Notes: a model not told the origin generated them from the letters alone. A DNA stretch of 64,000 bases from an uncultured Geobacteraceae bacterium (GCA_964418505.1 CAYQLP010000001.1:1665-65664), one strand, 5' to 3'; counted from the stretch's first letter, positions 159 to 60,205 are shown. Numbers and translations: made by a program.

Positions 159-176
159 GAGCGGTAGAAGGCCCCG

Positions 177-557
177 ATGACCCTGACCTTCGCCGTCTCC
201 CCGGAGAAGAACGCCGAGCTGCAGCGGCGCATGGCGGCGCTGGGGGTGCGCGAGGAGGATCTCGAGGAGAGCTTCGTGCGCTCCTCCGGCAGCGGTGGGC
301 AGCATGTCAACAAGAGCGCCACCTGCGTGCAACTGCGCCACCGCCCCAGCGGCCTCGAGGTCAAATGCAGCGAGGGGCGCAGCCAGTCCCTCAACCGCTT
401 CTTCGCCCGCCGCCTGCTCCTCGAACGCCTCGCCGAAAGGATGGGGCTGGCGACGGTCAAAAGCACCGCCCGGGATAAGATCCGCCGGCAGAAAGCCCGC
501 CGCAGCCGCAAGGCGGCCGACAAGTACGACGCTCCTTCCGCCCCGACAGACAACTGA
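177..557 (+). CDS. RF-1 domain / ArfB-like peptidyl-tRNA hydrolase (GGQ protein)
   Basis: 126 aa with an SGSGGQHVNK GGQ motif and a basic C-terminal tail (RRQKARRSRKAADK), like ArfB/YaeJ. Confidence 0.7.
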   Translation: MTLTFAVSPEKNAELQRRMAALGVREEDLEESFVRSSGSGGQHVNKSATCVQLRHRPSGLEVKCSEGRSQSLNRFFARRLLLERLAERMGLATVKSTARDKIRRQKARRSRKAADKYDAPSAPTDN

Positions 558-18027: not shown

Positions 18028-18030
18028 TGC

Positions 18031-19032
18031 TTAAGACCCGGTGCCGAGGGAGATCACCGCGTCGGCAGGCATCCCCGGCTTCAGTTCGTGGGCGGCGTTG
18101 GGGAGGGTGATCTTGATGCGGTAGACCAGTTTGACCCGCTCCTGCTCGGTCTGCACGTTCTTCGGGGTGAATTCGGCATCCTGGGCGATGAAGGTGACCT
18201 TGCCGCGGTAGCTGCGTCCGGGGTAGGTGTCGGTAGTGACCACGGCCTCCTGCCCCAGCTGGACCCGGCCGAGGTCGCTCTCGGCGATGTAGGCGCGCAG
18301 CCACACCGGGTCGAGCACGCCGAGAGTGACCACCGGCGTGCCGGCGGCGACGTATTCGCCGGCCTCGACGTTCTCGGCCAGCACGACCCCGTCCATGGGC
18401 GAGTTCAGCTCGGCATAGCCGAGGGTGGTGCGGGCCTGGGCCAGCGTCTCCTCGGCCACCTTGAGCTGGGCGCGGGCCTGTTCGATCTGCTCGCCGCGAT
18501 AGCCCTTGCGCAGCATGGCCAGGCGCTCCCCGGCCTCGCTGACCCGGCCGCCGGCCACTTCCCAGGCTGCCTTCGCGGTATCGGCCTCGCGGGCGGCGAT
18601 CAGGTCGCGGGCCAGCAGCTCACGGTCGCGCTGCCACTCGCTCGCGGCCCGCTGCTCTTCGGCCCGGGCCTGGACCAGTGCGGCCTCGGCCTGGGCGATC
18701 TCCTCGGGACGGTAGCCGGCGGTCAGTTCAGCGAGCATGGCCCGGGCCTTGTCGACCTCGGCCTGGCGCAGGGTCACCGCCTGCTCGAGCAGGGTGCTGT
18801 CAAGCCGGGCCACCAGCGCCCCCCTGGCGATGCGGTCCCCCTCGCTGACCGGGCGGGCGGCCACGTGGCCGGCGATGCGGAAGCTCAGTTCGGCATCGGT
18901 CACCTCGATGTTGCCGGAGAGGCGCACCTGGCCGGCCGGGGCGTGGTCAGCGGTATAGCGGCGGACGAAGAGGGCGACGGCGAGGATCAGCAACGCCCCG
19001 GCGAGAAGCCGGGCGAGGCGTTTGGGTGACAT
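18031..19032 (-). CDS. HlyD-family membrane fusion protein (YbhG-like)
   Basis: Start at MSPKRLARLLAGALLILAV (ATG 19030-19032, GGAGG RBS). Coiled-coil hairpin plus barrel-sandwich regions. Confidence 0.8.
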   Translation of the reverse strand: MSPKRLARLLAGALLILAVALFVRRYTADHAPAGQVRLSGNIEVTDAELSFRIAGHVAARPVSEGDRIARGALVARLDSTLLEQAVTLRQAEVDKARAMLAELTAGYRPEEIAQAEAALVQARAEEQRAASEWQRDRELLARDLIAAREADTAKAAWEVAGGRVSEAGERLAMLRKGYRGEQIEQARAQLKVAEETLAQARTTLGYAELNSPMDGVVLAENVEAGEYVAAGTPVVTLGVLDPVWLRAYIAESDLGRVQLGQEAVVTTDTYPGRSYRGKVTFIAQDAEFTPKNVQTEQERVKLVYRIKITLPNAAHELKPGMPADAVISLGTGS

Positions 19033-19204
19033 GGAAACCTCCGGGACGCCGGCGGGGTACTCCGCCGTTTCTGAATTTAAGCCCCCGCCGGCGGGGGTTG
19101 TCAAGTTGCCGGGCAGCGAAGCGTATGTTATTTTTTTTATTGGGAATCATCAGATCATCTGCAGGGTCCCCGCCGGGCACCCCGGGCGGGGCGGGAGGAG
19201 TCGC

Positions 19205-22200
19205 ATGCGCACAGCGTGGTGGGGAGCCGTCGCCGCGATTGCTGTCATTTTAGCGGGCCTGATCGCGGCCACGGTCTACGGGCCGGGCTGGCTGCGCGCC
19301 CAGGCCATCGCGCGGATCGGCGCAGAAACCGGGCGCACGCTGACCATCGGTGCAGTGAGCATCAACCCGCTGGCGCTGACGGTGGAGATTCGCGACGTCG
19401 CCCTCAGCGAAGCCGACCGGGCCACCCCCTTCGTCACCTGGCAGCGGCTCTTTCTCGCCTTCAGCCCGGGTTCGCTGTGGCACCGGGCGCCGGTCCTGCG
19501 CGAAATCCAACTCGATCAGCCCACCCTGCGCGTCGAGCGCCTGGCCGACGGCAGCTTTAACTTCTCATCGCTGCTCAAGCCAGCCGAGCCGTCCCCGGCG
19601 GATGCCGGCCGGCAGCCGGCGCGTTTTTCGCTCAACAACCTGGTCGTCAGCGGCGGCCGCCTCGAATTCACCGACCGCACCCTGGCACAGCCAGTCACTC
19701 ACCGGATCGAAAAGCTCGAACTGGCGATCCCCTTCGTCGGCAACCTCCCCTACCTGGCCGACCGCTACGTCCAGCCGCACCTGGGGGCCGTCATCAACGG
19801 GGCGCCCTTCGCCCTCGACGGCCAGCTCAAGCCCTTTGCCGACGCGCAGCAGTACGCCCTCCACGTCAAGCTGGCCGACCTCGACCTCCCCTACTATCTC
19901 GGCTATCTGCCGGACAGCCTGCCGCTCAAGGCGGCCGGGGGGCGACTCGGCATCGACCTGGAACTGAACTATCGGGCCGCCGCCGACGCCAAACCCCAGC
20001 TGGAAGTCAGCGGCCGCCTGAAACTGGCCGACCTCGACCTGCGCGACCGCGACGGACGCCAGCCCCTCTACCTGCCGGCCCTCGCCGTCGAGCTCGCCCC
20101 CTCCCGCCCCCTCGAGCGCCACCTCCACCTGGCGGAGGTGACCATCGCGCGCCCGCACCTGTGGATCGACCGCAACAGCGCCGGGCAGTGGAACGTCTCC
20201 CGCCTTCTCCCCGTCGCCGCGCCGGCCGCGGGGACGACCACCGCCGCGTCCCCCTTTGCCCTGCGCATCGATCGCCTGCGCCTCGACGGCGGCCGCCTCG
20301 AGCTGCATGACCGCCTCCCCGCCGGCGGTTTCCGGACCGTCCTGGAACCGGTCAAAATCGGCCTCACCGGACTGGATCTCACCCGGGAACGGCCCTTCGA
20401 CTTCGACCTGGCCTTGCGCAGCGAGCACGGCGAGGAGCTGACGGCGACCGGCGCGATCACCCCCGCGCCGCTGGCCGCCGACCTGGTCGTCACCGCCCGC
20501 GAAGTGCCGCTGGCCACCTACCTCCCGTACTACCGGGACCACCTCGCTGCCGAAATCGGCGGCCGGCTGGGCCTCCGCACCCGGGTCCGGCACAGCCCCG
20601 AACAGCCGCTGCTGCTCAGCGACGCCGCCGTCGAGCTGCGCGAGCTGGAGCTGCCGCTCCCCGAGGGGGAAGGCTTCAGGCTAGCCCACGCCGAACTCGG
20701 CGGGGGAAGCCTCGACCTGGCGGCCAGGAACTTTTCCGCCGACAGCCTGAGCTTCACCGGCGCCGACCTGCGCGTCTCCCGGCGCGCGGACGGCAGCTGG
20801 TCCTTTCTTCACAGCGGCTACCCGCTCCTCGACGGGCTCGCCGGGTCGGTGCCGGCCGCCCCGCCTCCACCCGCCCCCCCGGCAGCGCCCTTTGCCTGGC
20901 GGCTCGGCCGGATCAGCCTCACCGGCGGAGAGCTCACCTTCCGTGACCAACAGCCGGCGGAGCCGGTCCAGGTGAAGATCACCGCCCTGGCCGCAACCCT
21001 GCGCGATCTCGCCGCCCCGCAAGCGCTCACCGCCAACTTCAGCCTGCAGGGCACCTGCCAGAACCGCGGGCAGTTCAACCTTGCCGGCACCTTCGCGCCG
21101 GCCGCGCCACGCCTCGACGCCACCCTGCAGCTGCAGCGCCTCCCCCTGAAACCTTTTGCCCCGTACCTCGCCGCCCGCCTGCCGGTCGTCCTGGCCGACG
21201 GTCGTCTCGACTCCCGGCTGGCCATCCAGCTGTGGCAGTCGGCAGGCGCGTGGCAGGGACGGCTGCGCGGCGAGGCCGGAATCGGCCGCTTCCAGCTCTT
21301 CGACGCAACGCGGCGCGAAGAGCTGCTGCGCTGGGAGCGCCTGCAGTTGAGCGGCCTCGACCTGCACAGCCAGCCGCCGGCCCTGAGCATCGCCGGCGTG
21401 GCGCTGAGCGATTACTACGCCCGGGTCCTCCTCGACGAGGAGGGGCGCCTCAACCTCGCCGAAATCTTCCGCCAGCCCCCGCCCGCCGCCGGCGAGGAAC
21501 CACCGTCCGCCGTCACACCGGCCGACGGCAGCGAGCGCCCGCAGGTGAAAATCGCCCGCGTCACCCTGCAGGGGGGACGGGTCAACTTCACCGACCGCCA
21601 TCTGGCCCGCCCCTTCACCGCCGACATGCTCGACCTCGGCGGGAGCATCTCCGGGCTGAGTTCGACCCCGGGGACCGCCGCGACCGTCGACCTGCGCGGG
21701 CGGCTGCGCAACGAATCGCCGCTGGTCATCAGCGGCACCCTCAACCCGCTGGCCGAACCGCTCGCCCTCGACCTCAAACTGGCTTTCAGCGCCATCGAGC
21801 TGAGCCCCTTTTCACCCTATTCCGGCACCTATGTCGGCTACCTGATCGAACGCGGCAAGCTCAATGTCGATCTCGCCTACCAGGTCGCCGACGGCCGCCT
21901 GCAGGCCTCCAACAAGCTCTTTCTGGACCAGCTCACCTTCGGCGCCCAGGTCGACAGCCCCCAAGCCACCAGCCTGCCGGTGCGCCTGGCGGTGGCCCTG
22001 CTCAAGGACCGCAACGGCGAGATCCACCTCGACATCCCGGTCTGGGGGGATCTCAACGACCCGCAGTTCAGCGTCTGGCGCCTGGTCTGGCAGGTGCTCA
22101 AAAACCTGCTGGTCAAGGCGGCGACCTCACCGCTGGCGCTCCTCGGCGGGTTGGGCGGGAGCGATGACTTCAGCGCCATCGCCTTCCCGGCCGGCTCGGC

Positions 22201-22738
22201 CAGCCTGGCCGCCGCCGAACAGGCCAAACTGACCAGAATTGCCGACGCCCTGCGCGAGCGCCCCGATCTGCGCATCGAGGTCAAGGGCTACGTCGATCCC
22301 GATCACGATCCGGAAGGCTATCGCCGCGAACTGCTCGACGCGCAGCTGCGCCGTGCCCGTCAGCTCGACCGCGGCCTGCGCAAGGCCATGGCGGCGGCCG
22401 GGCGCGACGAGCAGGCACCGCTCACCGCCGAGGAGTACTCGGCCTGCCTGTGGCAGGTCTACCGGGAGGCCGCCTTCCCCAAGCCGCGCAACCTGATCGG
22501 CATGGTCAGCCATCTGCCCGATGCCGAGATGGAGAAGCTGCTGCTGGCCGGCATGACCGTCGGCCGGGAGGAAATGGAGCAGCTCGCCCAGCAGCGGGCC
22601 CGCCAGGTCATGGCCGCGCTGGTCGCCGCCGGCCTGGCGCAGGAGCGGCTCTTCATCGGTACGACGGTGATCGATGCGCCGCCCCAGATCACCGGAATGG
22701 GCCGCGGCCGGGTCGAATTCGGAGTGGTGGTCAAATAG
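19205..22738 (+). CDS. large envelope protein, DUF748/AsmA-like
   Basis: Start at MRTAWWGAVAAIAVILAGL (ATG 19205, in frame with ORF 19022..22738). About 1177 aa, with one N-terminal TM segment and a repetitive beta-rich body. Confidence 0.5.
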   Translation: MRTAWWGAVAAIAVILAGLIAATVYGPGWLRAQAIARIGAETGRTLTIGAVSINPLALTVEIRDVALSEADRATPFVTWQRLFLAFSPGSLWHRAPVLREIQLDQPTLRVERLADGSFNFSSLLKPAEPSPADAGRQPARFSLNNLVVSGGRLEFTDRTLAQPVTHRIEKLELAIPFVGNLPYLADRYVQPHLGAVINGAPFALDGQLKPFADAQQYALHVKLADLDLPYYLGYLPDSLPLKAAGGRLGIDLELNYRAAADAKPQLEVSGRLKLADLDLRDRDGRQPLYLPALAVELAPSRPLERHLHLAEVTIARPHLWIDRNSAGQWNVSRLLPVAAPAAGTTTAASPFALRIDRLRLDGGRLELHDRLPAGGFRTVLEPVKIGLTGLDLTRERPFDFDLALRSEHGEELTATGAITPAPLAADLVVTAREVPLATYLPYYRDHLAAEIGGRLGLRTRVRHSPEQPLLLSDAAVELRELELPLPEGEGFRLAHAELGGGSLDLAARNFSADSLSFTGADLRVSRRADGSWSFLHSGYPLLDGLAGSVPAAPPPPAPPAAPFAWRLGRISLTGGELTFRDQQPAEPVQVKITALAATLRDLAAPQALTANFSLQGTCQNRGQFNLAGTFAPAAPRLDATLQLQRLPLKPFAPYLAARLPVVLADGRLDSRLAIQLWQSAGAWQGRLRGEAGIGRFQLFDATRREELLRWERLQLSGLDLHSQPPALSIAGVALSDYYARVLLDEEGRLNLAEIFRQPPPAAGEEPPSAVTPADGSERPQVKIARVTLQGGRVNFTDRHLARPFTADMLDLGGSISGLSSTPGTAATVDLRGRLRNESPLVISGTLNPLAEPLALDLKLAFSAIELSPFSPYSGTYVGYLIERGKLNVDLAYQVADGRLQASNKLFLDQLTFGAQVDSPQATSLPVRLAVALLKDRNGEIHLDIPVWGDLNDPQFSVWRLVWQVLKNLLVKAATSPLALLGGLGGSDDFSAIAFPAGSASLAAAEQAKLTRIADALRERPDLRIEVKGYVDPDHDPEGYRRELLDAQLRRARQLDRGLRKAMAAAGRDEQAPLTAEEYSACLWQVYREAAFPKPRNLIGMVSHLPDAEMEKLLLAGMTVGREEMEQLAQQRARQVMAALVAAGLAQERLFIGTTVIDAPPQITGMGRGRVEFGVVVK

Positions 22739-32387: not shown

Positions 32388-33788
32388 CTACTTCTTGCGG
32401 TTCTTGGCGAACTGCGGATTGTCCATCGGGTCGCCTTTGTAGCCGAGCCCCCTCCAATCCATCCGCCCCTGGTCGCCGTGGCAGTCGAGGCACTGCAGGG
32501 CTTCCGCCTTGGGCGCCACCATGTGGTTGATGCGCCAGTACATGATGGTCGGCGCGAAGCCGTACTCGCCGCTGTAGGGCAGCCCGCTGGCCTGCATGCC
32601 GAGCTCGGCGGACTTGTTCCAGTCGAAGTCCTTCCAATATCCGCCCTGCCCAAAGACCTTGGTGGTGATGAAGATCCTGTTCTTGACGTCGTAGAGCTGC
32701 TTGCCGGTGTGGATCTTGAAGGGATAGATTTTCGCCGCCTTGTCCTTGATGTCCCCTTTCGGATAGGTCAGGGCCGTCACCTTGGACGGGTCCATCTTGT
32801 CGCCGGCCAGGTAGGCCCCGGCCGTGCCGTTGTACCAGGCGTAGGTCGGCATCACCATCTTGCCCCAGGTGAAATCGCCCTTCTTCTTATCGTAGGTGTG
32901 CTTGCCGAGCTTGTCGACCGGCTCATGGTCGAGGGTTTTGCCGGCCGTCGACCAGTCCCAGGACATCTTGGTCGGCTGTTCCTTGGCAAAATAGGGGATA
33001 TGACAGGTCTGGCAGGCCAGCGTCGCCGCGTGCTCGTTCAGGCGTCCCTGCTTGTGCGGAGCGGCCTCGTGACAGCCCTCGCAGCCGATGTGGTCTTTGC
33101 CGCCCGGGGAGACCACCATCGCCTGCCCGCTGATCTGGTGCCTTTCGACCTTGTGGCATTCCTGGCACTGGAAATCGTTGCCGTCGGTGGCCATGTGCAC
33201 ATCGACCTTCTTCTCGGGATACTCCATGCTCGAGTCGAGGTCGCCGTGCTTGACCGCATCGCCGCCACCGCCGAAGAAGTGACAGCTGCCGCAATTGAAG
33301 CGGCTCGGCTTGCCGACGCTGCGGGCTATGCGCAGCAGATCGAGGCCCTTGGCCGGATGGCCGGCGTCCGTCGCCTCTTTCTTGTAAGTCCCGGTGGTAT
33401 CGTGGCAGACCAGGCAGTCGACATTGGCCGGATTGTTGAAATCGAAATTCTTGTCGGTCCAGCCGTAGCCGGCGTGGCAGCTGGTGCAGCGCGGCTCGTT
33501 GCTGGAGATCGACACGCAGAAGTTGTTGATGGCATTCTTCTTGCCGCGATCAACGCTCTTGCCGTCGATGGTCTGCTTCGCCGACCACGTCCAGTGCGTG
33601 GTCTTCATGAAGTCCAGGGCTTGCTCCTTATGGCACTGCAGGCACTGGGCGGTGGCCTGCGGGCCGCTCTCGATGGGGCCCTGGACATACTCGGCGTGCT
33701 TGTTGGCGGCCTGGGCGGCGGGGGCCAGCGTCACCACCAGCAGGGCGGCGGCAATCAGTCCGCCCCGGATCTTGCTTCTGCTCGTCAT
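32388..33788 (-). CDS. octaheme c-type cytochrome, tetrathionate-reductase (OTR) family
   Basis: 466 aa with a signal peptide and eight CXXCH motifs (CLQCH, CTSCH, CLVCH, CGSCH, CQECH, CEGCH, CQTCH, CLDCH). Size and spacing are typical of OTR. Confidence 0.75.
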   Translation of the reverse strand: MTSRSKIRGGLIAAALLVVTLAPAAQAANKHAEYVQGPIESGPQATAQCLQCHKEQALDFMKTTHWTWSAKQTIDGKSVDRGKKNAINNFCVSISSNEPRCTSCHAGYGWTDKNFDFNNPANVDCLVCHDTTGTYKKEATDAGHPAKGLDLLRIARSVGKPSRFNCGSCHFFGGGGDAVKHGDLDSSMEYPEKKVDVHMATDGNDFQCQECHKVERHQISGQAMVVSPGGKDHIGCEGCHEAAPHKQGRLNEHAATLACQTCHIPYFAKEQPTKMSWDWSTAGKTLDHEPVDKLGKHTYDKKKGDFTWGKMVMPTYAWYNGTAGAYLAGDKMDPSKVTALTYPKGDIKDKAAKIYPFKIHTGKQLYDVKNRIFITTKVFGQGGYWKDFDWNKSAELGMQASGLPYSGEYGFAPTIMYWRINHMVAPKAEALQCLDCHGDQGRMDWRGLGYKGDPMDNPQFAKNRKK

Positions 33789-33863
33789 TACCGATCTCCT
33801 CTTTTTGTCCTTGTGACAGGTTGTCGTCTCCCCGGCCCCGATGCAGGCGGTCTGCCGGGGAAT

Positions 33864-33898
33864 AAAGCGGGAGCGGCGTATCGCCGCTCCCGCTTTTT
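33864..33898 (-). terminator. strong hairpin between the barrel gene and the OTR gene (terminator/attenuator)
   Basis: GCGGGAGCGGCG-TA-TCGCCGCTCCCGC, flanked by AAA and TTTTT. Confidence 0.55.
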
Positions 33899-33903
33899 CA
33901 GCA

Positions 33904-35490
33904 TCAGAACTTCATGGTCATCGAAGCATAAAGATCGAGGACTTCGTCAACAGCCGGGAGGATCGAGTAGGCCTTACCGTCCTGCACGTCTTCAATCTTC
34001 TGCGGCTTGCCGACCGGGGTGCCGCTACCGGTGTATTTATAGTCATAGTAGATCGCCCCGACCTTGAGGAACATGTTCGGATTGATGTCGATGATGTAGT
34101 AGGCCTCGCCGGCCTGGCCGCGAGTGGCCAGCTTGCTGCCGACCACGTCATCCTGGGCCTGGGTGAAGGGGGTCCAGTATTTTGAGCCGTAGTTGTACTC
34201 GAGGCCGAACTTGCCGTGCGGCGCCGGGGTCTGGAAGCCCACATACACACCGTAGCCGTCGCGGTTTTCATCTTCGGCCGCGCCAACAACCTGGCCAAGT
34301 TCATTATACTGTGCATCCGAAAGCAGACCACCGAACATCCCGGCCTTTCCGTTCGGGTCGGTCTGGGTCCACCCGAAGGAGCCGAACCACTTGAGGCCGT
34401 TTTGCTCTTCGCGGGTAAAGCCGATGCCGGCCAGCGTCATGTCGCCGATGTTGGTGGTGGCCGAGTAGCGAGCAACCAGGTTCGCACCAGGGAATGCTTC
34501 CCCCCCCATTGGAGTCGGAAGAGCAAAGACACCTTTGAAGCCGTCGGTTACATCCAGGGCCTGGAAAGCCGTCAACTGGACAAAGGTCGTATCATCATTG
34601 AACAGATCGATGTTGAAACCACCCAGGTGGGTGTCATCGACACTGACTTCGTTGAACAGTTCGCCGTTGCCGTACTCCGACTCATAGCCCTGGCCGTAGC
34701 AGAAGCGGGCGGTCATGCCGGGGATGCCGGTCAGTTCCTCGAGACCGTAACCGACAGTGATGCCGTCGAAGTTGAAGTTGACCAGGTGCCCGGAGGGGGT
34801 GCCGCCGCGCAGCTCGTTTTCACGGATGTTGGAAGGCGGCCCGTAGGTCGAGGGGCGGCGGCCGACCGAGAAAAAGAGCGGGGTGCCGCCGATGTTGCTC
34901 CAGTCGAAGAAGGCGCGCTCGACGTGAACATAGTCGCCCGTAGTGTTGCCGCTGTTGGTGCCGTCCATGGTGTAACCGCTCCAGGAGTCGAACTCCTTGA
35001 CGCCGGTGGAGTCACCCCAGTTCTTGTACATGGTCAGGCGGCCGTTGAACTTGACGTTGTCCCACACCTTGGCCTTCATGTTCAGGCGCAGGCGGGTGGT
35101 GTAGAGAACATCATTGTTCAGGCTGTATTTCTGCCGGACGAAAGTCCCATCGGGGTTCATACCCATCATGGGGTTTTGCACCAACGTCACATTGTCATAA
35201 TGCACGCTGTCGGCCTTGACGCGCAGGTCGCCGCTGAACTCGATACGATCGAGAACCGAGTGTTTCTCGGCGGCGTCGACACGCTTGGTCAGCTCCTTGA
35301 TCTCGGTCTTCGGCGCCTCGGCGGCCTTCTTGTTCTCCTCGACCTTCTGCGCCAGCGTCGAGAGCTGCGCGCTCAACTGCTGGATCTGCTGCTGCAGCTG
35401 CTGGATCATCTGCTCCTCCGCCGAGGCGGCCAGGCCGCTCGCCGGCAGAGCCAGCAGGGCCATAAGCCCCAAACCAACCAACTTCTTCAT
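33904..35490 (-). CDS. outer-membrane beta-barrel protein with N-terminal coiled coil (DUF3373-like)
   Basis: 528 aa. Signal peptide, Q/L-rich coiled coil (EEQMIQQLQQQIQQLSAQLSTLAQKVEE), a long beta-rich body and a C-terminal ...YASMTMKF. Confidence 0.55.
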   Translation of the reverse strand: MKKLVGLGLMALLALPASGLAASAEEQMIQQLQQQIQQLSAQLSTLAQKVEENKKAAEAPKTEIKELTKRVDAAEKHSVLDRIEFSGDLRVKADSVHYDNVTLVQNPMMGMNPDGTFVRQKYSLNNDVLYTTRLRLNMKAKVWDNVKFNGRLTMYKNWGDSTGVKEFDSWSGYTMDGTNSGNTTGDYVHVERAFFDWSNIGGTPLFFSVGRRPSTYGPPSNIRENELRGGTPSGHLVNFNFDGITVGYGLEELTGIPGMTARFCYGQGYESEYGNGELFNEVSVDDTHLGGFNIDLFNDDTTFVQLTAFQALDVTDGFKGVFALPTPMGGEAFPGANLVARYSATTNIGDMTLAGIGFTREEQNGLKWFGSFGWTQTDPNGKAGMFGGLLSDAQYNELGQVVGAAEDENRDGYGVYVGFQTPAPHGKFGLEYNYGSKYWTPFTQAQDDVVGSKLATRGQAGEAYYIIDINPNMFLKVGAIYYDYKYTGSGTPVGKPQKIEDVQDGKAYSILPAVDEVLDLYASMTMKF

Positions 35491-39574: not shown

Positions 39575-40705
39575 TCAGTAGCTTTTGCTGTCGCCGGAGA
39601 CATCGGCTTCAGTCAGCGGCCTGGCGTCCATCTGCCGCCAGACCCAGGCGATGTAGGCGAGGACAAAGGGGACGAGGAGCGCCACATAGGTCATCATGGT
39701 CAGGGTGTAGCGGCTGCTCGACGCATTATGAATGGTCAGGCTGCTGGCCGGATCGGCCAGGGAGGGATAGAAAGGCGTGTGGTTGTAGCCCGCCACGGCG
39801 AAGATCGCCAGGCAGGTCAGGACCGTGCCGAGGCCCGCCGGCCAGATGCCGCGGCGCGAGGCGCTGAAGCGGTTGAGGAGGACGCCGTCCACCACCAGCA
39901 CCAGCCCGGCCAGCAGCAGGACCAGCACCGCCGGCATGGCCAGCAGGTTGGCGAGGTACTTGCCGGCCACCATGCTGACCGCGCCGCTCTGCGGATCAAC
40001 GGCGAAGCCGTCCATGGTGACCAGCCGGATCAGCACGAAGAGGAGGAAGGGGAGCGACATCAGCAGGCTGTTGAAGGCGCAGCCGCGCAGGCGGGCCACC
40101 AGGGCGTCCTCATCGATGTTGTTGGCCAGGTACAGGGCCCCCAGGGTCCGGGAGAGGAAGACCAGGAAGAGGCCGAAGGCCAGGTTGAAGAGGTTGAAGG
40201 CCGCCTCGAGGCCGCGCAGCGGGTGCGTCCACTGCACCAGGTTGTAGCTGCTCAGGCGGAAATTTGAGCCGGTGAAGAAGGTTCCCAGAGCCGCGCCAAT
40301 GAGCAGGATGCCGACCGTGCCGTTGATCAGCAGGAAGACCTCGTAGGTGCGCTGGCCGAGGAAGTTGCCGGGTTTGCGGCGGAATTCATAGCTGACCGCC
40401 TGGATGACGAAGGTCAGCAGAATGGCGATCCACACCCAGTAGGCCCCGCCGAAGCTGGTGGCGTAGAAGAGCGGGAAGGCTGCGTAGAGCGCCCCGCCGA
40501 AGAGCACCAGGGTGGTGAAGGTCAATTCCCACTTGCGGCCCAGGGAGTTGACGATCAGGCTCTTCTCCATCTCGGTGCGGGCCAGAGTCAGGATCAGCGT
40601 CTGCCCCCCCTGGACAAAGGTCAGCATGACGAAGAGGGAGCCGACGACGGCGACGATCAGCCACCACAGCTGCTGCAGGGTGGCCAGTTCCAGGTTGCCG
40701 ATCAT
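39575..40705 (-). CDS. cydB: cytochrome bd ubiquinol oxidase subunit II
   Basis: 376 aa polytopic protein immediately after cydA. Confidence 0.9.
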   Translation of the reverse strand: MIGNLELATLQQLWWLIVAVVGSLFVMLTFVQGGQTLILTLARTEMEKSLIVNSLGRKWELTFTTLVLFGGALYAAFPLFYATSFGGAYWVWIAILLTFVIQAVSYEFRRKPGNFLGQRTYEVFLLINGTVGILLIGAALGTFFTGSNFRLSSYNLVQWTHPLRGLEAAFNLFNLAFGLFLVFLSRTLGALYLANNIDEDALVARLRGCAFNSLLMSLPFLLFVLIRLVTMDGFAVDPQSGAVSMVAGKYLANLLAMPAVLVLLLAGLVLVVDGVLLNRFSASRRGIWPAGLGTVLTCLAIFAVAGYNHTPFYPSLADPASSLTIHNASSSRYTLTMMTYVALLVPFVLAYIAWVWRQMDARPLTEADVSGDSKSY

Positions 40706-40709
40706 AGGG

Positions 40710-42245
40710 TTAGTCTCCTTCCGGGCCGAGGGCGATCTGCCTGGCCATGATCTTCACCTCGGCGATCAGCAGGACGGTGAAGAGGGCCAGAAAGATGAAG
40801 AAGGTCAGGGCCACCGAGCCGGTGTCGAGATTGGAACGGGCCACGCTGACCGGCAGCAGTCCCTGGATGGCCCAGGGCTGCCGGCCGACCTCGGTGATGA
40901 TCCAGCCGGCCTGCTGGGCGATGTAGCCGAGGGGCACCGCTAGCACGCCGAGTTTGAGCAGCCAGCGGCTCTCTTCGAGCTGGTGACGCGAGGCCTGGTA
41001 GAGGAAGAGCGCCATCAGCAGGATGAAGAAGGTGCCGAGGCCGACCATCACCCGGAAGCTGTAGAAGATCAGGCTGACCGGCGGCACGGCTTCGGCCGGC
41101 GACTGCAGGTAGCCGTAGCCGAGATAGGCTTCGTTGCGGTTAAAGTCGGCGAGGGCCGCAGCGGCGGCGTCACTGTCGCCGCCCTTTTGCGCCGTCTTGT
41201 AGGCCGCCAGGGCAGCCACCGCCTCCTTGCCGAGGCGCATCTTCTCCTCCACTCCCATGACGTTCTTCCCGGCATTTCCCCACACCAGGTCGTCGATCCC
41301 GGCTACGAAGCTGCCGAACTCGCGGTTGGCCAGCAGGGAGAGCATCCCGGGGATCTCAGCCTTGACCAGGAAGGGGTCCTGGCTGTCACCGGTCTCCTTG
41401 GCGGGGTTGACCACCCCGAAGGCGATCAGCCCGGTGGGGGTCTGCCCGGTGTAGAGCCCCTCCATGGCGGCCAGTTTCATCGGCTGGGTCTTGACCGTCA
41501 GGTAGGCGTGTTCATCACCGGTGAAGCCGACAAAGAGGGAGCTGAGCAGCCCGAAGGTGGCCGCGACGGTGATCGAGCGCAGGGCGAAAAGGCGGTGGCG
41601 CCCCTTGAGGAGAAACCAACTGGAGACGCCGACGACGAAAAGGGAAGCAAGCAGGAAGCCGGAGGAGGTGGCGTGGGCGAAGTGGCCGATGGCAATCGGC
41701 GAGGAGATCACCGCCCACAGGTCCTGCATCTCGAAGCGGGCGGTATCGGGGTTAAACTTCATGCCGATGGGGTTCTGCATCCAGCCGTTGGCCACCAGGA
41801 TCCACAGGGCCGAAAGATTGGAGCCGACCGCCACCATCCAGGTGGAGAAGAGGTGCATGCGCCTTGAGACCCGTTCCCAGCCAAAGAACATCACGGCGAA
41901 GAAGGTCGCCTCGAGGAAGAAGGCGACGATCCCCTCGATGGCCAGCGGCGTGCCGAAGATGTCGCCGACCATCCACGAGTAGTTCGACCAGTTGGTGCCG
42001 AATTCGAACTCGAGGATGATTCCGGTGGCGACGCCGATGGCGAAGTTCACCCCGAAGAGGGTCATCCAGAATTTGGTCAGGCGCTTCCATTCCGGGTTGC
42101 CGGTCCGGTAGTAGACCGTTTCGAAGAAGGCGCACAAAAACGACAGCCCGAGAGTCAGGGGGACGAAAATCCAGTGGTACATCGCCGTCATGGCGAACTG
42201 GGCGCGGGCCCAGTTGAGTTGTGCGGGGTCGAGGGATTCGAACAA
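40710..42245 (-). CDS. cydA: cytochrome bd ubiquinol oxidase subunit I
   Basis: 511 aa, with N-terminus MFESLDPAQLNWARAQFAMTAMYHWIFVPLTLG and a Q-loop region. Confidence 0.95.
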   Translation of the reverse strand: MFESLDPAQLNWARAQFAMTAMYHWIFVPLTLGLSFLCAFFETVYYRTGNPEWKRLTKFWMTLFGVNFAIGVATGIILEFEFGTNWSNYSWMVGDIFGTPLAIEGIVAFFLEATFFAVMFFGWERVSRRMHLFSTWMVAVGSNLSALWILVANGWMQNPIGMKFNPDTARFEMQDLWAVISSPIAIGHFAHATSSGFLLASLFVVGVSSWFLLKGRHRLFALRSITVAATFGLLSSLFVGFTGDEHAYLTVKTQPMKLAAMEGLYTGQTPTGLIAFGVVNPAKETGDSQDPFLVKAEIPGMLSLLANREFGSFVAGIDDLVWGNAGKNVMGVEEKMRLGKEAVAALAAYKTAQKGGDSDAAAAALADFNRNEAYLGYGYLQSPAEAVPPVSLIFYSFRVMVGLGTFFILLMALFLYQASRHQLEESRWLLKLGVLAVPLGYIAQQAGWIITEVGRQPWAIQGLLPVSVARSNLDTGSVALTFFIFLALFTVLLIAEVKIMARQIALGPEGD

Positions 42246-42276: not shown

Positions 42277-42519
42277 TCAGCGGGCCGGCGGGCCGGACGG
42301 AAGAGTCTCGGTCAGGCGGCGCAGTACATGGTCGGCGCGCGCTTCATCACTGGCATAGGTTTCATGGAGCACATCGGGAAAGTACAGATTGAGAACTGCA
42401 AGGAAAACCAGCAGCTTGATGATGATCACCGCCCATAGCGTCCGCCCCAGGCGCATGGCACGAAAACCGTCACGGTAGAAGTAAAAGACACCGGCGGCCC
42501 GCTTGGCCAGGGCATTCAT
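42277..42519 (-). CDS. small membrane protein upstream of cydA (DUF4492-like)
   Basis: 80 aa, MNALAKRAAGVFYFYRDGFRAMRLGRTLWAVIIIKLLVFL. Confidence 0.5.
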   Translation of the reverse strand: MNALAKRAAGVFYFYRDGFRAMRLGRTLWAVIIIKLLVFLAVLNLYFPDVLHETYASDEARADHVLRRLTETLPSGPPAR

Positions 42520-42751
42520 CAGGCGGCCTCCCCGCAGTTTTATAACAAGTGCACGCTAATGGAGCCCCGAACAAAAGTCAATTCTAATTTCTGAATATTA
42601 ATCTTCGCTCCAATGCCCGGGGGCCGCAGCCGAGTGCGTGGACAGGAATCCGTCCGGCTGGCACTGAAGTGGCTGTCTTCAACAACCGGGAGCTGCAGGG
42701 CAAAGACATCGCACTGGTCGATAACGGCCGGTCGACCCGGGCCATCCCTGT

Positions 42752-42781
42752 AAAAAAAAGGCCCGGCGTTAACGCCGGGCC
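42752..42781 (-). terminator. rho-independent terminator after the MtrB-like gene
   Basis: The minus strand reads GGCCCGGCGTTAACGCCGGGCC followed by TTTTTTTT, 27 nt after the TGA at 42808-42810. Confidence 0.85.
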
Positions 42782-42807: not shown

Positions 42808-45159
42808 TCAGAAACGGTGGCCGAAGCCGATGTAGCTGTAGTAGGCACTGCCGTCTTCGTTGCCGTAGACGTACTCCTCGTCACTGACAAACTTGTCGTA
42901 AGTCAGCGAGGCAGTGACGTAACAGGCCGGGGTGACATCATAGGTCCCGCCGACCGTCACCTGGTACTGCTCGTAGGAGAGGTCCGAGTACTCGTCGATC
43001 TGGTTGTTGAGCTGCCAGTTGTCGTAATTGACCGACGCATAGGCCCCGGGGGCCTCTATACCGGTGTCGGCAAGGACGGCCGTAGGAGCATTTTCGGGAC
43101 TGAGCTCTTTCCGCTCGGTGAACTTCCAGTCCCAGCGATCGCGGGCATTGTTGTAGGTGAGCCCGGCATTCAGGCGGAGCTGCTTGGTGGCCTGGTAATC
43201 GAGGTTGAGCGCGACGGTGTGGACATCAGACTTGTATTCCGCGGTGTTGCAGATCGAGCCAAACTGGCCCGACGAGACGTCGTTCGCTCAGCCATGGTAC
43301 CAGCCGACACACGCGCGGTTCTCGGTGTCCTGCCGGTTGTAGTTATAGGCAAAGGTCAGGTTGAGTTTGTCGCTCGGCGCATACCACAGGCTGAGGCCGG
43401 GGGAGTAGGTGCTCTGCTCGAAATCGACTTCGTCGTTTTCGGCGTAGCGCACACGGGCCGAGAGGGTAGCGGCCAGATTCGGCTGGGCCGACCAGGTGCC
43501 GGAAAGTTTCCCTTCATGCACTTCCTCGGGGAGGCTGGTCGAGGACAGCTGGCGGTTCGGGTAGACCGAGGTCCAGTACCAGGTCGGAGTAGCCGGCGAC
43601 GGGGTGTAGGCCGAGGTGTTGTAGTACCACAGCCCGGAGCCGAGCGGGTCCTGGGTGCCGTCCCCCTGGGCGATGCCGACATGAGCACCGGCCAGCGGCT
43701 CGTCGATGTCCTGGTAGGTGTAGCTGGCGTTGGCCGAGAAGGCACGATTGATTCTCGACTTGAGGGCCAGCTTGTAAGTCTGGGTCGTCGTCTCTCCCAG
43801 TTCTTCCTCATCGCGCTCGACTTTTTCGTACTCGTAGCCCAGCCGCAGGGTCGTCCCCTTGACCAAGCGGTAGACCGCGTCAAAGCCAACTTCGTTGACT
43901 TTACGGGACTCGGCGGAGAGCCACTCGTCGGCAGCGGTCCCCGGCCAGGCGGCATCCGCCGCCGGCACTTCACGCTGCGGGTAGTAGACCGTGTTGCCGT
44001 CGGCGTCGATCTCATAACTGCTGGCGCGCAGCGCCAGGCGCAGATTTTTGCCGAACCTGGTCGACAGCTTGGCGCCGAAGGACTCGTAATCGGTGCTCAG
44101 GGTGTTCCCGCCTTGCAGCTCGTACTCGGGCTGGTCGGCCTTGCTGCTCTCGATGTCGGACTTGACGTAGCTGCCGATCAAGGTCGTGTCCCGCGCCAGG
44201 TCGAGACGGGCCTTGAGCGAATGGCTGTCCTTCTCCGAGTCGGGGGTTGCGCCGAAAGGCAGCTCACCTGCCTCATAGAGGAGGTTGTAGGCGGTGGCAT
44301 TCTGCGCGTCTTCGTAGTAGTGGGTCGGTTCTGCCCCACCGGCAGTGAATTTCCGCGTCAGGTACTCGTAGGCCACGGTCAGCAGGCCGAAACGGCCGGT
44401 GGCGCCCAGGGTGATATCCTCGGTGCGCTCGTCGATCTTCTTGCCGACCGCCGAGACGTGGCAGGCATCGCACTTGGTTACGCCGACGGACTGTTCCATC
44501 CCTTCGCGGGTCTCCACCCGGGTCCCGGCATGGAAGGTCACGTTGGGCAGCTCCGGAACGGTCAGCTCGGCTTCGCCCTTCCACTCGCGGCGGGTGACGA
44601 TGTAGTTGTTGCTGAGCTCCTGCTGGTACTTGGCGGCCGGATCGTAACTGGCGGGAACGGTGAGGCCGCCGACGCCGGTGGTATTGATGTTGACCCCGGC
44701 AGCCTCCAGATCGGCGAGCGTCTTGTCGGTCACCGTACTGGGCTGCGAGCCGCCGATGTCGTCACGGGCGGTGGCGCCCATCTGCTCGAGGGTCTCGTGA
44801 TCCTTCCAGTGTTCGAAGACCCGGTAGTCGAACTTCAGACGCAGGACGCGCTCGGCGTCCAGGTGCAGGTCGAACTTCTGGTCGCGCGGGCCCATGATGT
44901 CGGCGTCGAGGCCGAAGGCCGAATTGCCGCCGAATTTCGAATCGAGGGTCAGCTTGGGCGCAAAACTGATCCCGTCCTTGGCACGGGTGCCAACGTACTC
45001 GTTGACACGTGCCGGGTTGTCCTTGGTGTCCGCACCGGCAACACCGATCTCCACTTGTCCGCTGAAGGCTTGCTCTTCGGCAACGGCTGGCGTGGCGATC
45101 GTCATTAAGGCCAGGACGGACACCGCGGCAAGCCGATTAAGGCACTGCTTCATGGTCAT
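42808..45159 (-). CDS. MtrB/PioB-family decaheme-associated outer-membrane barrel, 783 codons with one in-frame TGA at 43288-43290
   Basis: The 623-aa ORF 43288..45159 has a signal peptide (MTMKQCLNRLAAVSVLALMTIATPAVA). It continues in the same frame for 159 Met-free codons and ends YYSYIGFGHRF*. It lies directly downstream of a decaheme MtrA-like gene. Confidence 0.7.
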
Positions 45160-45169
45160 CCTCCTTTCG

Positions 45170-46165
45170 TTAACGGGTCAGACCGCCACCGCTGAGCGGT
45201 TGCGACGGGTAGTCACTGCCGTGGACCGCCTTGTGGCAGGTGGTGCACTTGGTGGCAAACGAGGTCTGGAAGCCTTCCTTGCCGTGGACGTTGACGACGT
45301 TGGCCAGGTCTTTCTGGGCCTGCGTAGTTGCAGTCTGGCCGACGGCGGGAGTCGGCACGGTGTAGTTCGACTCGCGCAGCATGTGGAAGTGGCCCTCGTG
45401 GCACTGCAGGCAGAGGAAGGGCTCATTCTGCACCAGCAGGTTGTTGGCCACCGAGCCATGCGGGTCGTGGCAGATGGTGCAGTTGTCTTCCACCGGGGCA
45501 TGCCCGAAGACGAAGGGCCCCTGGTAACGGCTGTGGCAGCCGAGGCACAGGTCGTTGGTGCGCTCGTCGGTGTTCAGCTCGCCATGGGGATTGTGGCAGT
45601 CGGAGCAGGTCATCTTCCCTTCCTTGACCGGATGGTGGGAGGGGAAGTTGGCCTTGGCCATCTGCTCCTGGTGGCAGGAGTAGCAGAGCTCCGGCTCCTG
45701 CTTTTTGAGGGCGTGCTTGCCGCCACCGTGGATGGTATGGCAATCGCTGCAGCTGAGGTCGGCCAGAGCGTGCTCGCTGTGAGTCCAGTCCATCAGTTTG
45801 CCGCTGGTGTGGCACTTGGCGCAGACCGCCGCGCCTTCGTCGGCGGTGAGTTCGCCGAAGCGGAGGATCTTGCTGCTATCGCCTTCCTGGACGTGCAGGC
45901 TGCCGCCGCCGTGGCAGGCTTCGCAGCCCTGGGTGCCGCCCATGTACTCGAACCCGGCCAGCCGGGCGTGGACGCCGTGCCCCATGGCGGAGGCGGCCTC
46001 CTCGTGGCACTCCAGGCAGGCGGCCTGCCCGACCGGAGCCGCGCCGTTGATCTGCGGCAAGCTCAGGATGCGCTCCCTGATCGCTCCCGTCGCGCAGGCG
46101 GCGATGAGCAGCAGGGGGGCGATCCTGGCCAGGCGCAGGGCGCTGAACCATCTCTCGCGTTTCAT
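45170..46165 (-). CDS. periplasmic decaheme c-type cytochrome (MtrA/DmsE/PioA family)
   Basis: Start at MKRERWFSALRLARIAPLLLIAA (ATG 46163-46165, AAAGGAG RBS). 331 aa with ten CXXCH motifs. Confidence 0.85.
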   Translation of the reverse strand: MKRERWFSALRLARIAPLLLIAACATGAIRERILSLPQINGAAPVGQAACLECHEEAASAMGHGVHARLAGFEYMGGTQGCEACHGGGSLHVQEGDSSKILRFGELTADEGAAVCAKCHTSGKLMDWTHSEHALADLSCSDCHTIHGGGKHALKKQEPELCYSCHQEQMAKANFPSHHPVKEGKMTCSDCHNPHGELNTDERTNDLCLGCHSRYQGPFVFGHAPVEDNCTICHDPHGSVANNLLVQNEPFLCLQCHEGHFHMLRESNYTVPTPAVGQTATTQAQKDLANVVNVHGKEGFQTSFATKCTTCHKAVHGSDYPSQPLSGGGLTR

Positions 46166-46391
46166 GAATGCTCCTTTCTTCACGTATCTGCAAAAAATTT
46201 TAAAGGGGGGGGCATCAGCCGGCGTCACTGCAGCCTCCTTTCCATGTCCCGGTTTCGAGTGCCCATTCAAACACCGGTCTAGACGGCGCGGCGGCAGTAT
46301 GTTAAAAAGATTCTCATTCAGAGGAAAACGAATCATTCTTATCAAGCGCATTAGCCTTGGTTAACCCTGTTTGTCCACCGTCGAGGAGCTC

Positions 46392-47333
46392 ATGCAGACC
46401 CGCTATCTGAAAACCCTGGTGGCAGCCGTCGAAGAAGGGAGCTTTTCGCGGGCCGCCGAACTGCTGCATATTACCCAGTCGGCGGTCTCCCAGCGCATCA
46501 AGCTGCTCGAGGAGTATTTCGGCCACGCGCTCTTCGACCGCAGCGGGGCCACCGTCGAACTGACCCAGGCCGGGCGCCTGGTGCTGGGCAAGGCCCGCGA
46601 GATCCTGCGCAAGGAACGGGAACTGGTCGACAGCCTCAAGGGGCTGGGCGGGGAAAAACGACTGGCGCTGTGCTGCACGCCGACCTTCGGCATGGCCTAC
46701 CTGTCGCCGGTCCTCAACAGCTTTATCCGCGCCCACGCCGATGTTACCGACCTCAAGGTGGTCATCGAGCAGCCGCAGAGCGCCTTGCGCGCGGTGCGCA
46801 ACGAGGAGTTCGACCTGGCCATCATCGAACACTGTCCCGATCAGGAGTTCAACGGGTTGGATCGCTTCATCCTCCCCGATGACGATCTCGTCCTGGTCGC
46901 CCCGCCCGGCACCCTGGCGGCCAACCCCGCGGGGAGCGTCAGCCTTGCCGAGCTGACCCGCTACCGGCTCTTCGCCCGGCGCGACGGCTGCAGCTCCAAG
47001 GAAGTCCTGCGTCAGAACCTCCTGCGCAGCGGTGTCGATTTCAACAACTTCGGTGGAATCTTGATCTCAGACGACCTGCGTTTCGTCATCGATTCTGTGA
47101 TTGGCGGCGAAGGAGTCGCCTTCGTCTCACGCATCCTGGTCGCCGAACACCTGGCCAGCGGCAAACTGGTGGGCCTGACCGTCGAGGGCTTCGCCAACAG
47201 CCGCGGCCGCAGCGTCGCCCTGCTCCCCGGGCGCCACGCTGAACCGCTGATCAGGGGCCTGCTCGACTGCATCTTCCAGATCACCACCCCCGACCGCCAG
47301 CCGCAGATGATCAGCGGGCAGGGACAAGGCTGA
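46392..47333 (+). CDS. LysR-family transcriptional regulator
   Basis: Start at MQTRYLKTLVAAVEEGSFSRAAELLHITQSAVSQRIKLLE (ATG 46392, GAGGAG RBS). Divergent from the mtrA-like gene. Confidence 0.85.
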   Translation: MQTRYLKTLVAAVEEGSFSRAAELLHITQSAVSQRIKLLEEYFGHALFDRSGATVELTQAGRLVLGKAREILRKERELVDSLKGLGGEKRLALCCTPTFGMAYLSPVLNSFIRAHADVTDLKVVIEQPQSALRAVRNEEFDLAIIEHCPDQEFNGLDRFILPDDDLVLVAPPGTLAANPAGSVSLAELTRYRLFARRDGCSSKEVLRQNLLRSGVDFNNFGGILISDDLRFVIDSVIGGEGVAFVSRILVAEHLASGKLVGLTVEGFANSRGRSVALLPGRHAEPLIRGLLDCIFQITTPDRQPQMISGQGQG

Positions 47334-57072: not shown

Positions 57073-58365
57073 CTAGCGACCCTGTCCGGAGCGCGCGCCG
57101 TTGCGCTTGAAGCGCCGGCGGGCGGCGGGCGGCCGGGCCGGCTCGGCGGCGGCCACTGCTGCGGCCGGCGGCGTCGCGGCCGCCTTGGGCTTGACGCGCG
57201 GGGCCATCGGCGGGCGGGGCGCGCGGGCGAACTCGGTGTCCTTGCGCGGCGCCGCCACCGTATAGTCGAAGTCCGCCAGGCGGCGGCGCTCGAGGGGCTT
57301 GCCGAGAGCTTTCTCGATACTCCTGACCATCGCCGCATCCTCGCCGCTCACCAGGGTGAAGGCGTCGCCGCTGCGCGCGGCGCGGCCGGTGCGGCCGATA
57401 CGGTGGATGTAGGCCTCGGTGGTATCCGGGATGTCATAGTTGATGACATGCGAGATCTGGCTGACGTCGATGCCGCGGGCGGCGATGTCGGTGGCCACCA
57501 GGATCTGGAAGCTGCCGTCGCGGAAACCGTCGAGGGCTGCCTGGCGGCGGTTCTGCGACAGGTTGCCCTGCAGCGAGGCGGCCCGGTAGCCGGCCTTCTG
57601 CAGCTGTTCGTCAAGGCGCTTGGCGCGATGCTTGGTGCGGGTGAAGACCAGCACCGACTCGGTGTCGGTGTGCTGGAGCAGGGCGGTCTTGAGGTGCGGC
57701 TCGACCGGGTAGAGGGCGTGGCTGACGGTGACCGCCGGGGCCACTCGGTCGACCTGCACGGTCACCGGGCTGGTCAGCACCTCCCCGGCCAGGCCGCGGA
57801 TCGCCTCGGGCATGGTCGCCGAGAAGAGCAGGGTCTGGCGGCGCGGCGGCAGCGCCTTGAGGATGCGACGAATGTCGGGGAGGAAGCCCATGTCGAACAT
57901 CTGGTCGGCCTCGTCGAGGACCAGCACCTCGAGGCGCGACAGGTCGATCGTCCCCTGGCCGATATGGTCGAGGAGCCGCCCCGGGCAGGCGACGACGATG
58001 TCGACGCCGCGGCGCAGCCGGGCGATCTGCGGGTTGATGCCGACCCCGCCGTAGACGGTGGTGCTGGTCAGGCCGGTCTGGGTGCCGAGGGTGACGAAGC
58101 TGTCGTTGATCTGCTCGGCCAGTTCGCGGGTCGGGGCCACCACCAGGGCGCGCACCCGGCCGCGGCCGCCGGGGTGGAGGCGGTGCAGGATCGGCAGGGC
58201 GAAAGCGGCGGTCTTGCCGGTGCCGGTCTGGGCCAGGCCCATGACGTCGCGGCCGGCGAGTACCGCCGGGATGGCCTGGGCCTGGATCGGCGTGGGGGCG
58301 AGGTAACCGGCGGCCGTAACGCCGGCGGCAACCTCGGGGTGAAACTGGAAATCGGTGAACTGCAT
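57073..58365 (-). CDS. DEAD-box ATP-dependent RNA helicase (RhlE-like)
   Basis: Q-motif, AQTGTGKT, DEAD, SAT and HRIGRTGRA motifs, plus a basic C-terminal tail. Confidence 0.9.
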   Translation of the reverse strand: MQFTDFQFHPEVAAGVTAAGYLAPTPIQAQAIPAVLAGRDVMGLAQTGTGKTAAFALPILHRLHPGGRGRVRALVVAPTRELAEQINDSFVTLGTQTGLTSTTVYGGVGINPQIARLRRGVDIVVACPGRLLDHIGQGTIDLSRLEVLVLDEADQMFDMGFLPDIRRILKALPPRRQTLLFSATMPEAIRGLAGEVLTSPVTVQVDRVAPAVTVSHALYPVEPHLKTALLQHTDTESVLVFTRTKHRAKRLDEQLQKAGYRAASLQGNLSQNRRQAALDGFRDGSFQILVATDIAARGIDVSQISHVINYDIPDTTEAYIHRIGRTGRAARSGDAFTLVSGEDAAMVRSIEKALGKPLERRRLADFDYTVAAPRKDTEFARAPRPPMAPRVKPKAAATPPAAAVAAAEPARPPAARRRFKRNGARSGQGR

Positions 58366-58452
58366 TATGTCAAAAAATCCTTTTCTCGGTTGGTTCGGCG
58401 CCGGGAGCTTCGCTCCCCTGGCGCCTGGTTGTCTTTGCGGAGAGCCTGGGGA

Positions 58453-59739
<1,287 letters not shown>

Positions 59740-60205
59740 GAAAGTTCCTTCCGCTGACGCAGGAATGCGACAGCTGTTCGCATGGGCGTGCACGCCGCCG
59801 GGCAGCCATCGGCCCGGAGAGGTTCGGCTGGAGCACAGTCAGACTGGCAGAAAAACATCGTCGCCAACCTGGGGTGCTGCCGCGCATGAAACGGGAAGAT
59901 CGCAGGGGGTCAGGAACGATGAAGCGCCGGCCGAACGGCCGACGCCTGTTACAGTCGAAAGTGGTTATACACCGGAACGGCGACGAAATGCAAGCCGCAG
60001 GGAGAAAAATGCCTTCCGGGCCCTGAAACCTGACTCGCCAGGGCACCGCGGAACGTGCTTTTGCACATCCGCCCGGGCGCGCTTTCCCATGAATTAACGC
60101 TTGATTGCACATTCCTTGATAGAAAATATCGTGTTATCGGTATACATATATCCTCGCGGACAATGCCCTGCATTGACACTGCCGACCCAGCCAAGGAGTC
60201 TCGCC

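Follow-up and report, generated by a model that had tools for sequence, protein, structure and literature searches.

We propose that omcL, an outer-membrane β-barrel gene of the GSU2204 family on a stretch of DNA from an uncultured Geobacteraceae bacterium (GCA_964418505.1, CAYQLP010000001.1:1665-65664), is read through an in-frame UGA, and that this UGA is decoded as selenocysteine (Sec) by SelB at a hairpin lying within the coding region. Among the readings considered, this is the best supported by the comparison of sequences, and we give it a probability of about 0.9. The whole stretch of 64,000 nucleotides that was analysed is called the window here, and all coordinates refer to it. The minus-strand open reading frame (ORF) at 43288..45159 encodes 623 amino acids, runs to ...NRACVGWYHG and stops at TGA 43288-43290. 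Past this codon come 159 more sense codons in the same frame (42811..43287, minus strand), which end in YYSYIGFGHRF and are closed by a second TGA at 42808-42810. At the other end of the gene, the true start is likely the second ATG, at 45153 (MKQ...), in preference to the one at 45159. On the minus strand at 42781-42760, a terminator-like site of nine G-C pairs followed by T8 is placed 3' of the second stop, not of the first. A first-pass annotation of this DNA had reported the TGA, the 159-codon open continuation, its GFGHRF end and the terminator, and all of them were re-derived as claimed; its central proposal, a recoded UGA (selenocysteine) with a hairpin of the selenocysteine insertion sequence (SECIS) type in an MtrB/PioB-type barrel, is strongly supported by the comparative evidence. 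The features of the gene are as follows.

42808..45159, minus strand: predicted read-through omcL/GSU2204-family outer-membrane β-barrel gene, 783 codons including Sec624, with its own stop at TGA 42808-42810
43288..43290, minus strand: in-frame UGA, probably read as selenocysteine (U624); TGA in 82 of 82 evaluable loci and in two independent Sequence Read Archive (SRA) assemblies
43253..43273, minus strand: candidate bacterial SECIS (bSECIS)-type hairpin with a 9-bp stem, a GUU loop at 43262-43264 and a conserved 7-bp core at 43255-43271
42811..43287, minus strand: the 159 codons after the UGA, with five predicted β-strands and the C-terminal signal ...YIGFGHRF
42750..42781, minus strand: intrinsic-terminator-like hairpin and T-run after the true stop

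A stop codon inside a gene may come from a mistake in sequencing or assembly, or mark a gene recently inactivated by mutation in this strain, and the first-pass annotation had kept this alternative alive. Its bare presence, and nothing else, speaks for such a lesion. Two assemblies, built from the unrelated read sets SRR30464856 and SRR8925774, contain a called protein (P0001) 100% identical to the first 621 amino acids; each has the same TGA with the same flanks, one agreeing with the window at all 2406 bases compared and the other differing at 6. The DNA of relatives was collected from five genome loci, found by a scan with one protein, and from 80 metagenome loci. In every one of the 82 orthologous loci that reach the Sec column (35-76% identity), the codon is TGA, with no TGC, TGT, TGG or other codon. 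In relatives whose contigs are long enough, 140-172 further codons follow in frame, and the protein ends in G-x-G-[YWH]-x-F. The metagenome scan relied on two peptide patterns, one of which adjoins the UGA; neither the scan of genomes nor the search of proteins made use of that pattern, and their answer is the same. Since the TGA recurs unchanged in both of these assemblies and in all 82 relatives, an error or recent lesion is ruled out as an alternative, and we give it next to no credence.

The protein databases show how consistently the gene is cut at this codon. In a whole-protein search, the 120 best homologues (51-100% identity, 569-680 amino acids or fragments) cover 59-80% of the read-through query, and VGWYHG is the C-terminus of 119 of them as called, the exception being a fragment cut by a contig end. 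Indeed, all database proteins of the OmcL family that we saw are called as a truncated product of ~620 amino acids, sometimes with a separate fragment of ~140 amino acids. A search of 1.84 billion cluster representatives with the C-terminal 159 amino acids returned neither a junction-spanning protein nor a Cys form; the matches were fragments of 50-157 amino acids covering the whole segment, plus three long multi-stretch proteins with short repeated matches. A junction-spanning query of 245 amino acids, run against a 5.8-billion set, recovered pre-UGA or post-UGA pieces only. The sole called read-through protein, P0125 (GWYHG-FR-ANDV), was rejected as a non-Sec form: it comes from a frameshift-riddled assembly in which the gene is broken and the TGA carries a 3-nt insertion.

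Two loci of this collection deserve a remark of their own. At 2501-2743 of the locus behind P0125 (L088; GCA_018399135.1, JAGYPB010000006.1), the omcL homologue is frameshifted and the Sec codon reads T-TTC-GA, giving 'FR'; this is most likely an artefact of an unpolished long-read assembly and could mislead searches for non-Sec forms. In another locus (L004; CAVQRZ010000019.1), the frame shifts ~74 codons past the TGA and the protein remains recognisable in another frame, probably owing to an assembly indel.

The UGA could also be a true stop, with a functional 623-residue product and the following 159 codons left as an untranslated relic or a separate gene. Gene callers annotate it so in every database entry seen. 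However, the 159 post-UGA codons are under purifying selection: in pairwise comparisons of the window with ten relatives, the ratio of non-synonymous to synonymous substitution rates (dN/dS) is 0.08-0.40, the same range as that of the 159 codons before the UGA, and two further comparisons were synonymous-saturated. Chance comes nowhere near explaining the in-frame continuation and its conservation, and relatives of 35-76% identity keep the frame open as described above. Nor is the segment translatable on its own, because its first possible start codon is codon 109, leaving 108 codons downstream of the UGA without a start. The position of the terminator, after the second stop and not the first, likewise argues against termination at the UGA.

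The predicted fold points the same way. Residues 66-765 of the read-through product score 85.1 bits on the Pfam model MtrB_PioB (PF11854), whose gathering threshold is 23; therefore, one domain spans the UGA. An AlphaFold2 model of residues 1-623 (mean pLDDT, the model's confidence score, 69) contains ~21 strands, and its best match in the Protein Data Bank is MtrB (6R2Q chain B; E 7.5e-13, TM-score 0.61/0.58). The post-UGA piece, modelled separately with AlphaFold2 from 11 homologous fragments, has five long strands at 11-32, 37-58, 100-117, 122-136 and 144-157. Over the two separately modelled parts, the total comes to ~26 strands, the number in the MtrB barrel. According to these models, a barrel ending at residue 623 would lack five strands together with the C-terminal aromatic signal, in agreement with the first-pass annotation, which had held that a product truncated at the UGA would miss the last strands and that signal. 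Considering all of this, a true stop at codon 624 is very improbable.

What kind of read-through takes place is the next matter, and here the identity of the family is informative. The NCBIfam model NF041027 (GSU2204_Se_pt_1, 'GSU2204 family CXXCH-containing (seleno)protein') matches the protein with 635.3 bits against a cut-off of 350; residues 15-623 align to positions 2-580 of the 580-position model, whose end falls exactly at the UGA (codon 624). The narrow MtrB/PioB subfamily TIGR03509 gives 48.9 bits against a cut-off of 240, so that the protein is related to this subfamily and not a member of it. A review of prokaryotic selenoproteins from 2026 (PMC13188914) counts the GSU2204 family among them. 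The statement in the first-pass annotation that Sec in an outer-membrane conduit sheath was undescribed is consequently wrong, since NF041027 is named a (seleno)protein and the review lists the family; the find is correct and not new, the family being already catalogued as a predicted selenoprotein. GSU2204 and GSU2203 are OmcL and OmcK of Geobacter sulfurreducens, discussed as the porin-cytochrome conduit OmcKL (PMC10553843, PMC4070692). The genes were reported to be up-regulated in Geobacter on hematite and magnetite, and OmcKL to be highly expressed in HotSeep-1, the syntrophic partner of methane-oxidising archaea (PMC4070692, PMC10553843). The word selenocysteine is absent from the OmcKL electron-transfer paper PMC10553843, and the main text of PMC2398784, the review's reference for the family, contains none of 'cytochrome', 'outer membrane', 'porin' and 'MtrB'.

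Downstream of the UGA, the messenger RNA can form the hairpin GUCGGGCCA-GUU-UGGCUCGAU (43273-43253, minus strand), whose loop lies 23 nt after the UGA and whose folding energy is -12.2 kcal/mol. The hairpin with its GUU loop was found as the first-pass annotation had described it; the stem composition given there, eight Watson-Crick pairs and one wobble, was not, as we count seven Watson-Crick and two G-U pairs (one internal, one closing). The test of the geometry applied the four bSECIS criteria of PMC13188914, section 5, and the window hairpin satisfies all four. The compatibility with bacterial SECIS models claimed earlier therefore stands, although in a single sequence it carries little evidential weight, as a control with random TGA codons indicates (see below).

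It is the comparison among relatives that gives the hairpin its weight. Across 58 distinct indel-free sequences, each of the inner seven pairs is retained in 95-100%, and the GUU loop, which hardly varies, begins 23 nt past the UGA in every case; the two outermost pairs of the window hairpin are not conserved in relatives. Pair 23:33 is C-G in 35 sequences, G-C in 18, G-U in 3 and A-U in 2; it ties a codon position at which changes are non-synonymous to the wobble base of a Gly codon. Covariation scores 0.235, compared with 0.126 in shuffles (0 of 500 as high), and registers slid along the alignment reach at most 0.064. More diverged loci (L005, L016, L021 and the L049 group) have a hairpin of different sequence, likewise with a G-first loop, at 17-29 nt. 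The core (43255-43271, and the same position in the related loci L001-L085) also encodes a conserved peptide, S-x-Q-F-G-S; its second residue varies (Gly, Thr, Ala, Ser, Asp and others), and the codon for it covaries with the Gly wobble base across the stem.

Two other ways of passing the UGA have to be weighed. First, the codon might be read through without selenium, by a near-cognate Trp or Cys transfer RNA (tRNA), the hairpin merely slowing termination. The conserved frame, the downstream protein and a hairpin would be needed by any read-through mechanism, and the Sec machinery was not seen in the 64-kb window; this much the proposal can claim. Nevertheless, the position of the hairpin and its G-first loop are typical of SelB-dependent elements, curators have filed the family as a selenoprotein, and the lineage is rich in selenoproteins. 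Moreover, if Trp or Cys were functional at this site, TGG or TGC would be expected in some of the 82 diverged lineages, and none has either. We consider selenium-free read-through improbable. Second, UGA might be reassigned genome-wide, as in genetic code 4 or 25. TGA is in fact the commonest ordinary stop in the window, and because it terminates 12 of the 19 family-matched window genes where the family models end, including omcL itself at its final stop, UGA is not reassigned; the idea is scarcely credible. In five further cases within the window, an in-frame TGA links two coding-like ORFs (the families among them being TtcA, ABC-2 permease, GlnE and an ArfB-like protein). These were tried as recoding sites and judged to be ordinary adjacent genes, because the downstream ORFs start soon after the stop and those matched to a family differ in family from their upstream neighbour.

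Several observations weigh against Sec decoding, and they are gathered here. First, the hairpin in this sequence alone is not above chance. When 300 random TGA codons of the window (67% G+C) served as a control, 122 (41%) were followed by a hairpin passing all four bSECIS criteria and 29 by one at least as strong as that of omcL; the 61-nt hairpin region folds with z = -1.5. The single-sequence SECIS score was dropped as evidence after this control. Second, RNA and protein constraints overlap at the hairpin core, and the conserved peptide could explain part of the conservation there. Third, none of selA, selB, selD and tRNA-Sec was found within the 64-kb window. Fourth, Rfam gave no match in the window (gathering thresholds) or in 43180-43330 (E <=10), a database in which bSECIS hairpins are without a matching model. 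Fifth, no report of selenium incorporation into OmcL was found in the literature searched. Finally, no Cys homologue aligned with the UGA was found in either protein search or among the 82 loci, so that the usual criterion of Cys/Sec pairs is unusable; in prediction pipelines, such pairing is a supporting criterion and not a defining one. By the same token, the omcL family looks Sec-obligate, with no Cys form in the data searched.

Decoding of the UGA as Sec by SelB would work in the following way. On this reading, omcK and omcL (42808-46165, minus strand) are the two genes of one operon and encode a porin-cytochrome electron conduit, in which OmcK is an MtrA/DmsE-type decaheme lipoprotein and OmcL an MtrB-like barrel of ~26 strands with its own CXXCH heme motif. 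When the ribosome reaches the UGA at codon 624, the hairpin 23 nt downstream would recruit SelB-GTP-Sec-tRNA(Sec). Sec would be inserted, and translation would go on to complete the barrel with its last five strands and to add the C-terminal aromatic signal needed for assembly into the outer membrane. We infer that SelB and Sec are in actual use in this organism; Deltaproteobacteria are rich in selenoproteins (PMC5029168).

The omcK-omcL arrangement is itself conserved, and a regulator stands beside it.

45170..46165, minus strand: OmcK/GSU2203-family decaheme c-type cytochrome, 331 amino acids from M63 of its ORF, with ten CXXCH motifs and a lipobox-like LLIAAC
46371..47333, plus strand: divergent LysR regulator of the 'multiheme cytochrome-associated' subfamily (NF041036, 369 bits against 210)

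OmcK matches NF041028 with 456.6 bits against a cut-off of 325 and the DmsE family TIGR03508 with 223 against 192. The omcK stop lies 10-16 nt before the omcL start, and an omcK homologue stands directly upstream of omcL in all 41 related loci with enough flank; a LysR homologue is present in 39 related loci. On the other side, immediately downstream of omcL, are a small DUF4492 gene (42277-42519, minus strand) and cydA and cydB, which encode a cytochrome bd oxidase (39575-42245, minus strand). The DUF4492-cydA order is repeated in the near-identical assemblies of the same organism, L086 and L087; no cydA homologue was found beside omcL in the other 82 related loci.

The residues around the predicted Sec suggest a possible function. 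In the barrel protein, the following positions stand out.

44458..44472, minus strand: CDACH c-type heme-binding motif (C230, C233, H234), in a loop between predicted strands 7 and 8 (AlphaFold2 secondary structure)
43309..43311, minus strand: invariant Cys617, seven residues before the Sec (45 full-length sequences)
43249..43251, minus strand: invariant Cys637, thirteen residues after the Sec (45 full-length sequences)

The CDACH motif is invariant in 45 of 45 reconstructed full-length sequences and in the alignment A1. Across these 45 sequences, the sole invariant sulfur or selenium residues are C230, C233, C617, U624 and C637, and conservation along the protein is highest in the 30 residues surrounding the Sec. 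The flanking Cys residues indicated by the first-pass annotation are thus present, and their spacing is now set as C617-x6-U624-x12-C637. The C-terminus of an outer-membrane barrel ends on the periplasmic side. Counting strands back from it, and following how tight turns alternate with long loops in both models (pLDDT 69 and 74, below 50 in loops), would place the Sec loop (~612-636), the CXXCH loop (222-241) and the loop with the invariant TPDSEKDSH313 all on the long-loop, extracellular face. It is conceivable, if rather doubtful, that U624, C617, C637 and the barrel heme make up a redox or ligand site at the outer mouth of the conduit, an arrangement that fits the conservation and the modelled topology. 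Equally speculative is the further suggestion that OmcL may be an obligate selenoprotein in which a catalytic or ligand centre, such as a Sec-ligated heme or an Se-S redox pair, serves as the terminal site of electron exit or entry, replacing an MtrC-type surface cytochrome.

Comparison with known systems places the gene more precisely. With GSU2204 (OmcL) of G. sulfurreducens it has in common the curated family model, the CXXCH motif, a UGA placed where the 'part 1' model ends, and the upstream GSU2203/OmcK decaheme cytochrome; nothing essential differs, and the window gene is a further member from an uncultured Desulfuromonadales-like organism of 67% G+C. With Shewanella MtrB (6R2Q chain B) and with PioB/MtoB it shares PF11854, the fold, the ~26 predicted strands and an MtrA/DmsE-type decaheme gene just upstream. 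In contrast to MtrB and PioB, the window barrel scores far below the TIGR03509 cut-off and carries its own CXXCH and, by prediction, Sec; to our knowledge, MtrB has neither a heme motif nor Sec. Also unlike the MtrB system, no gene for an MtrC-type surface cytochrome adjoins the window omcL. An outer-membrane barrel with its own covalent c-heme motif is also present in the Cyc2-type fused monoheme cytochrome-porins of iron oxidisers, where the CXXCH is N-terminal to a smaller barrel; the window OmcL has its motif instead in the loop that joins strands 7 and 8, and its barrel is large and MtrB-like. We know of no Sec in Cyc2. Finally, ExtKL of G. sulfurreducens (GSU2937-2936, NF040886) is likewise a predicted Sec-containing component of an outer-membrane conduit gene cluster, and early annotation wrongly broke it at the UGA into two genes (PMC5877670, PMC13188914). 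ExtKL differs in being a soluble or lipoprotein-type multiheme cytochrome, not a barrel, and belongs to an unrelated sequence family.

Elsewhere in the window, an uninterrupted ORF at 32391-33911 (minus strand) matches the full model of a family listed as sometimes Sec-containing (PMC13188914) and is presumably a non-Sec form; the adjoining 528-residue ORF at 33907-35490 (minus strand) has no NCBIfam match. Two coding-like ORFs at 16837-19026 and 18959-22735 (both plus strand; ~730 and 1260 codons, with G+C at third codon positions of 0.78 and 0.88) have no NCBIfam match at E <=1e-12. Tandem paralogues of a DEAD-box RNA helicase (RhlE/CsdA/SrmB-like) at 57076-58452 and 58456-59838 (both minus strand) lie in the same frame with a single stop codon between them. 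A small ORF at 168-554 (plus strand) carries a release-factor/ArfB-type peptidyl-tRNA hydrolase domain (E ~1e-17 to the prfB/prfA models, far below their cut-offs); after its TGA, an in-frame coding-like stretch at 558-1658 overlaps the range of the glnE ORF.

As the gene is already catalogued, the practical value of this analysis is one of annotation. The predicted Sec, with no Cys substitute in 82 lineages, belongs to a barrel that sheathes a decaheme cytochrome and has a heme motif of its own. If the proposed site at the mouth of the conduit is true, outer-membrane β-barrels would have their first demonstrated functional selenium site. A selenium requirement of the conduit, if real, would matter for cultivation and for models of electron transfer, because OmcKL has been reported to be highly expressed in HotSeep-1 and up-regulated on iron-oxide minerals in Geobacter.

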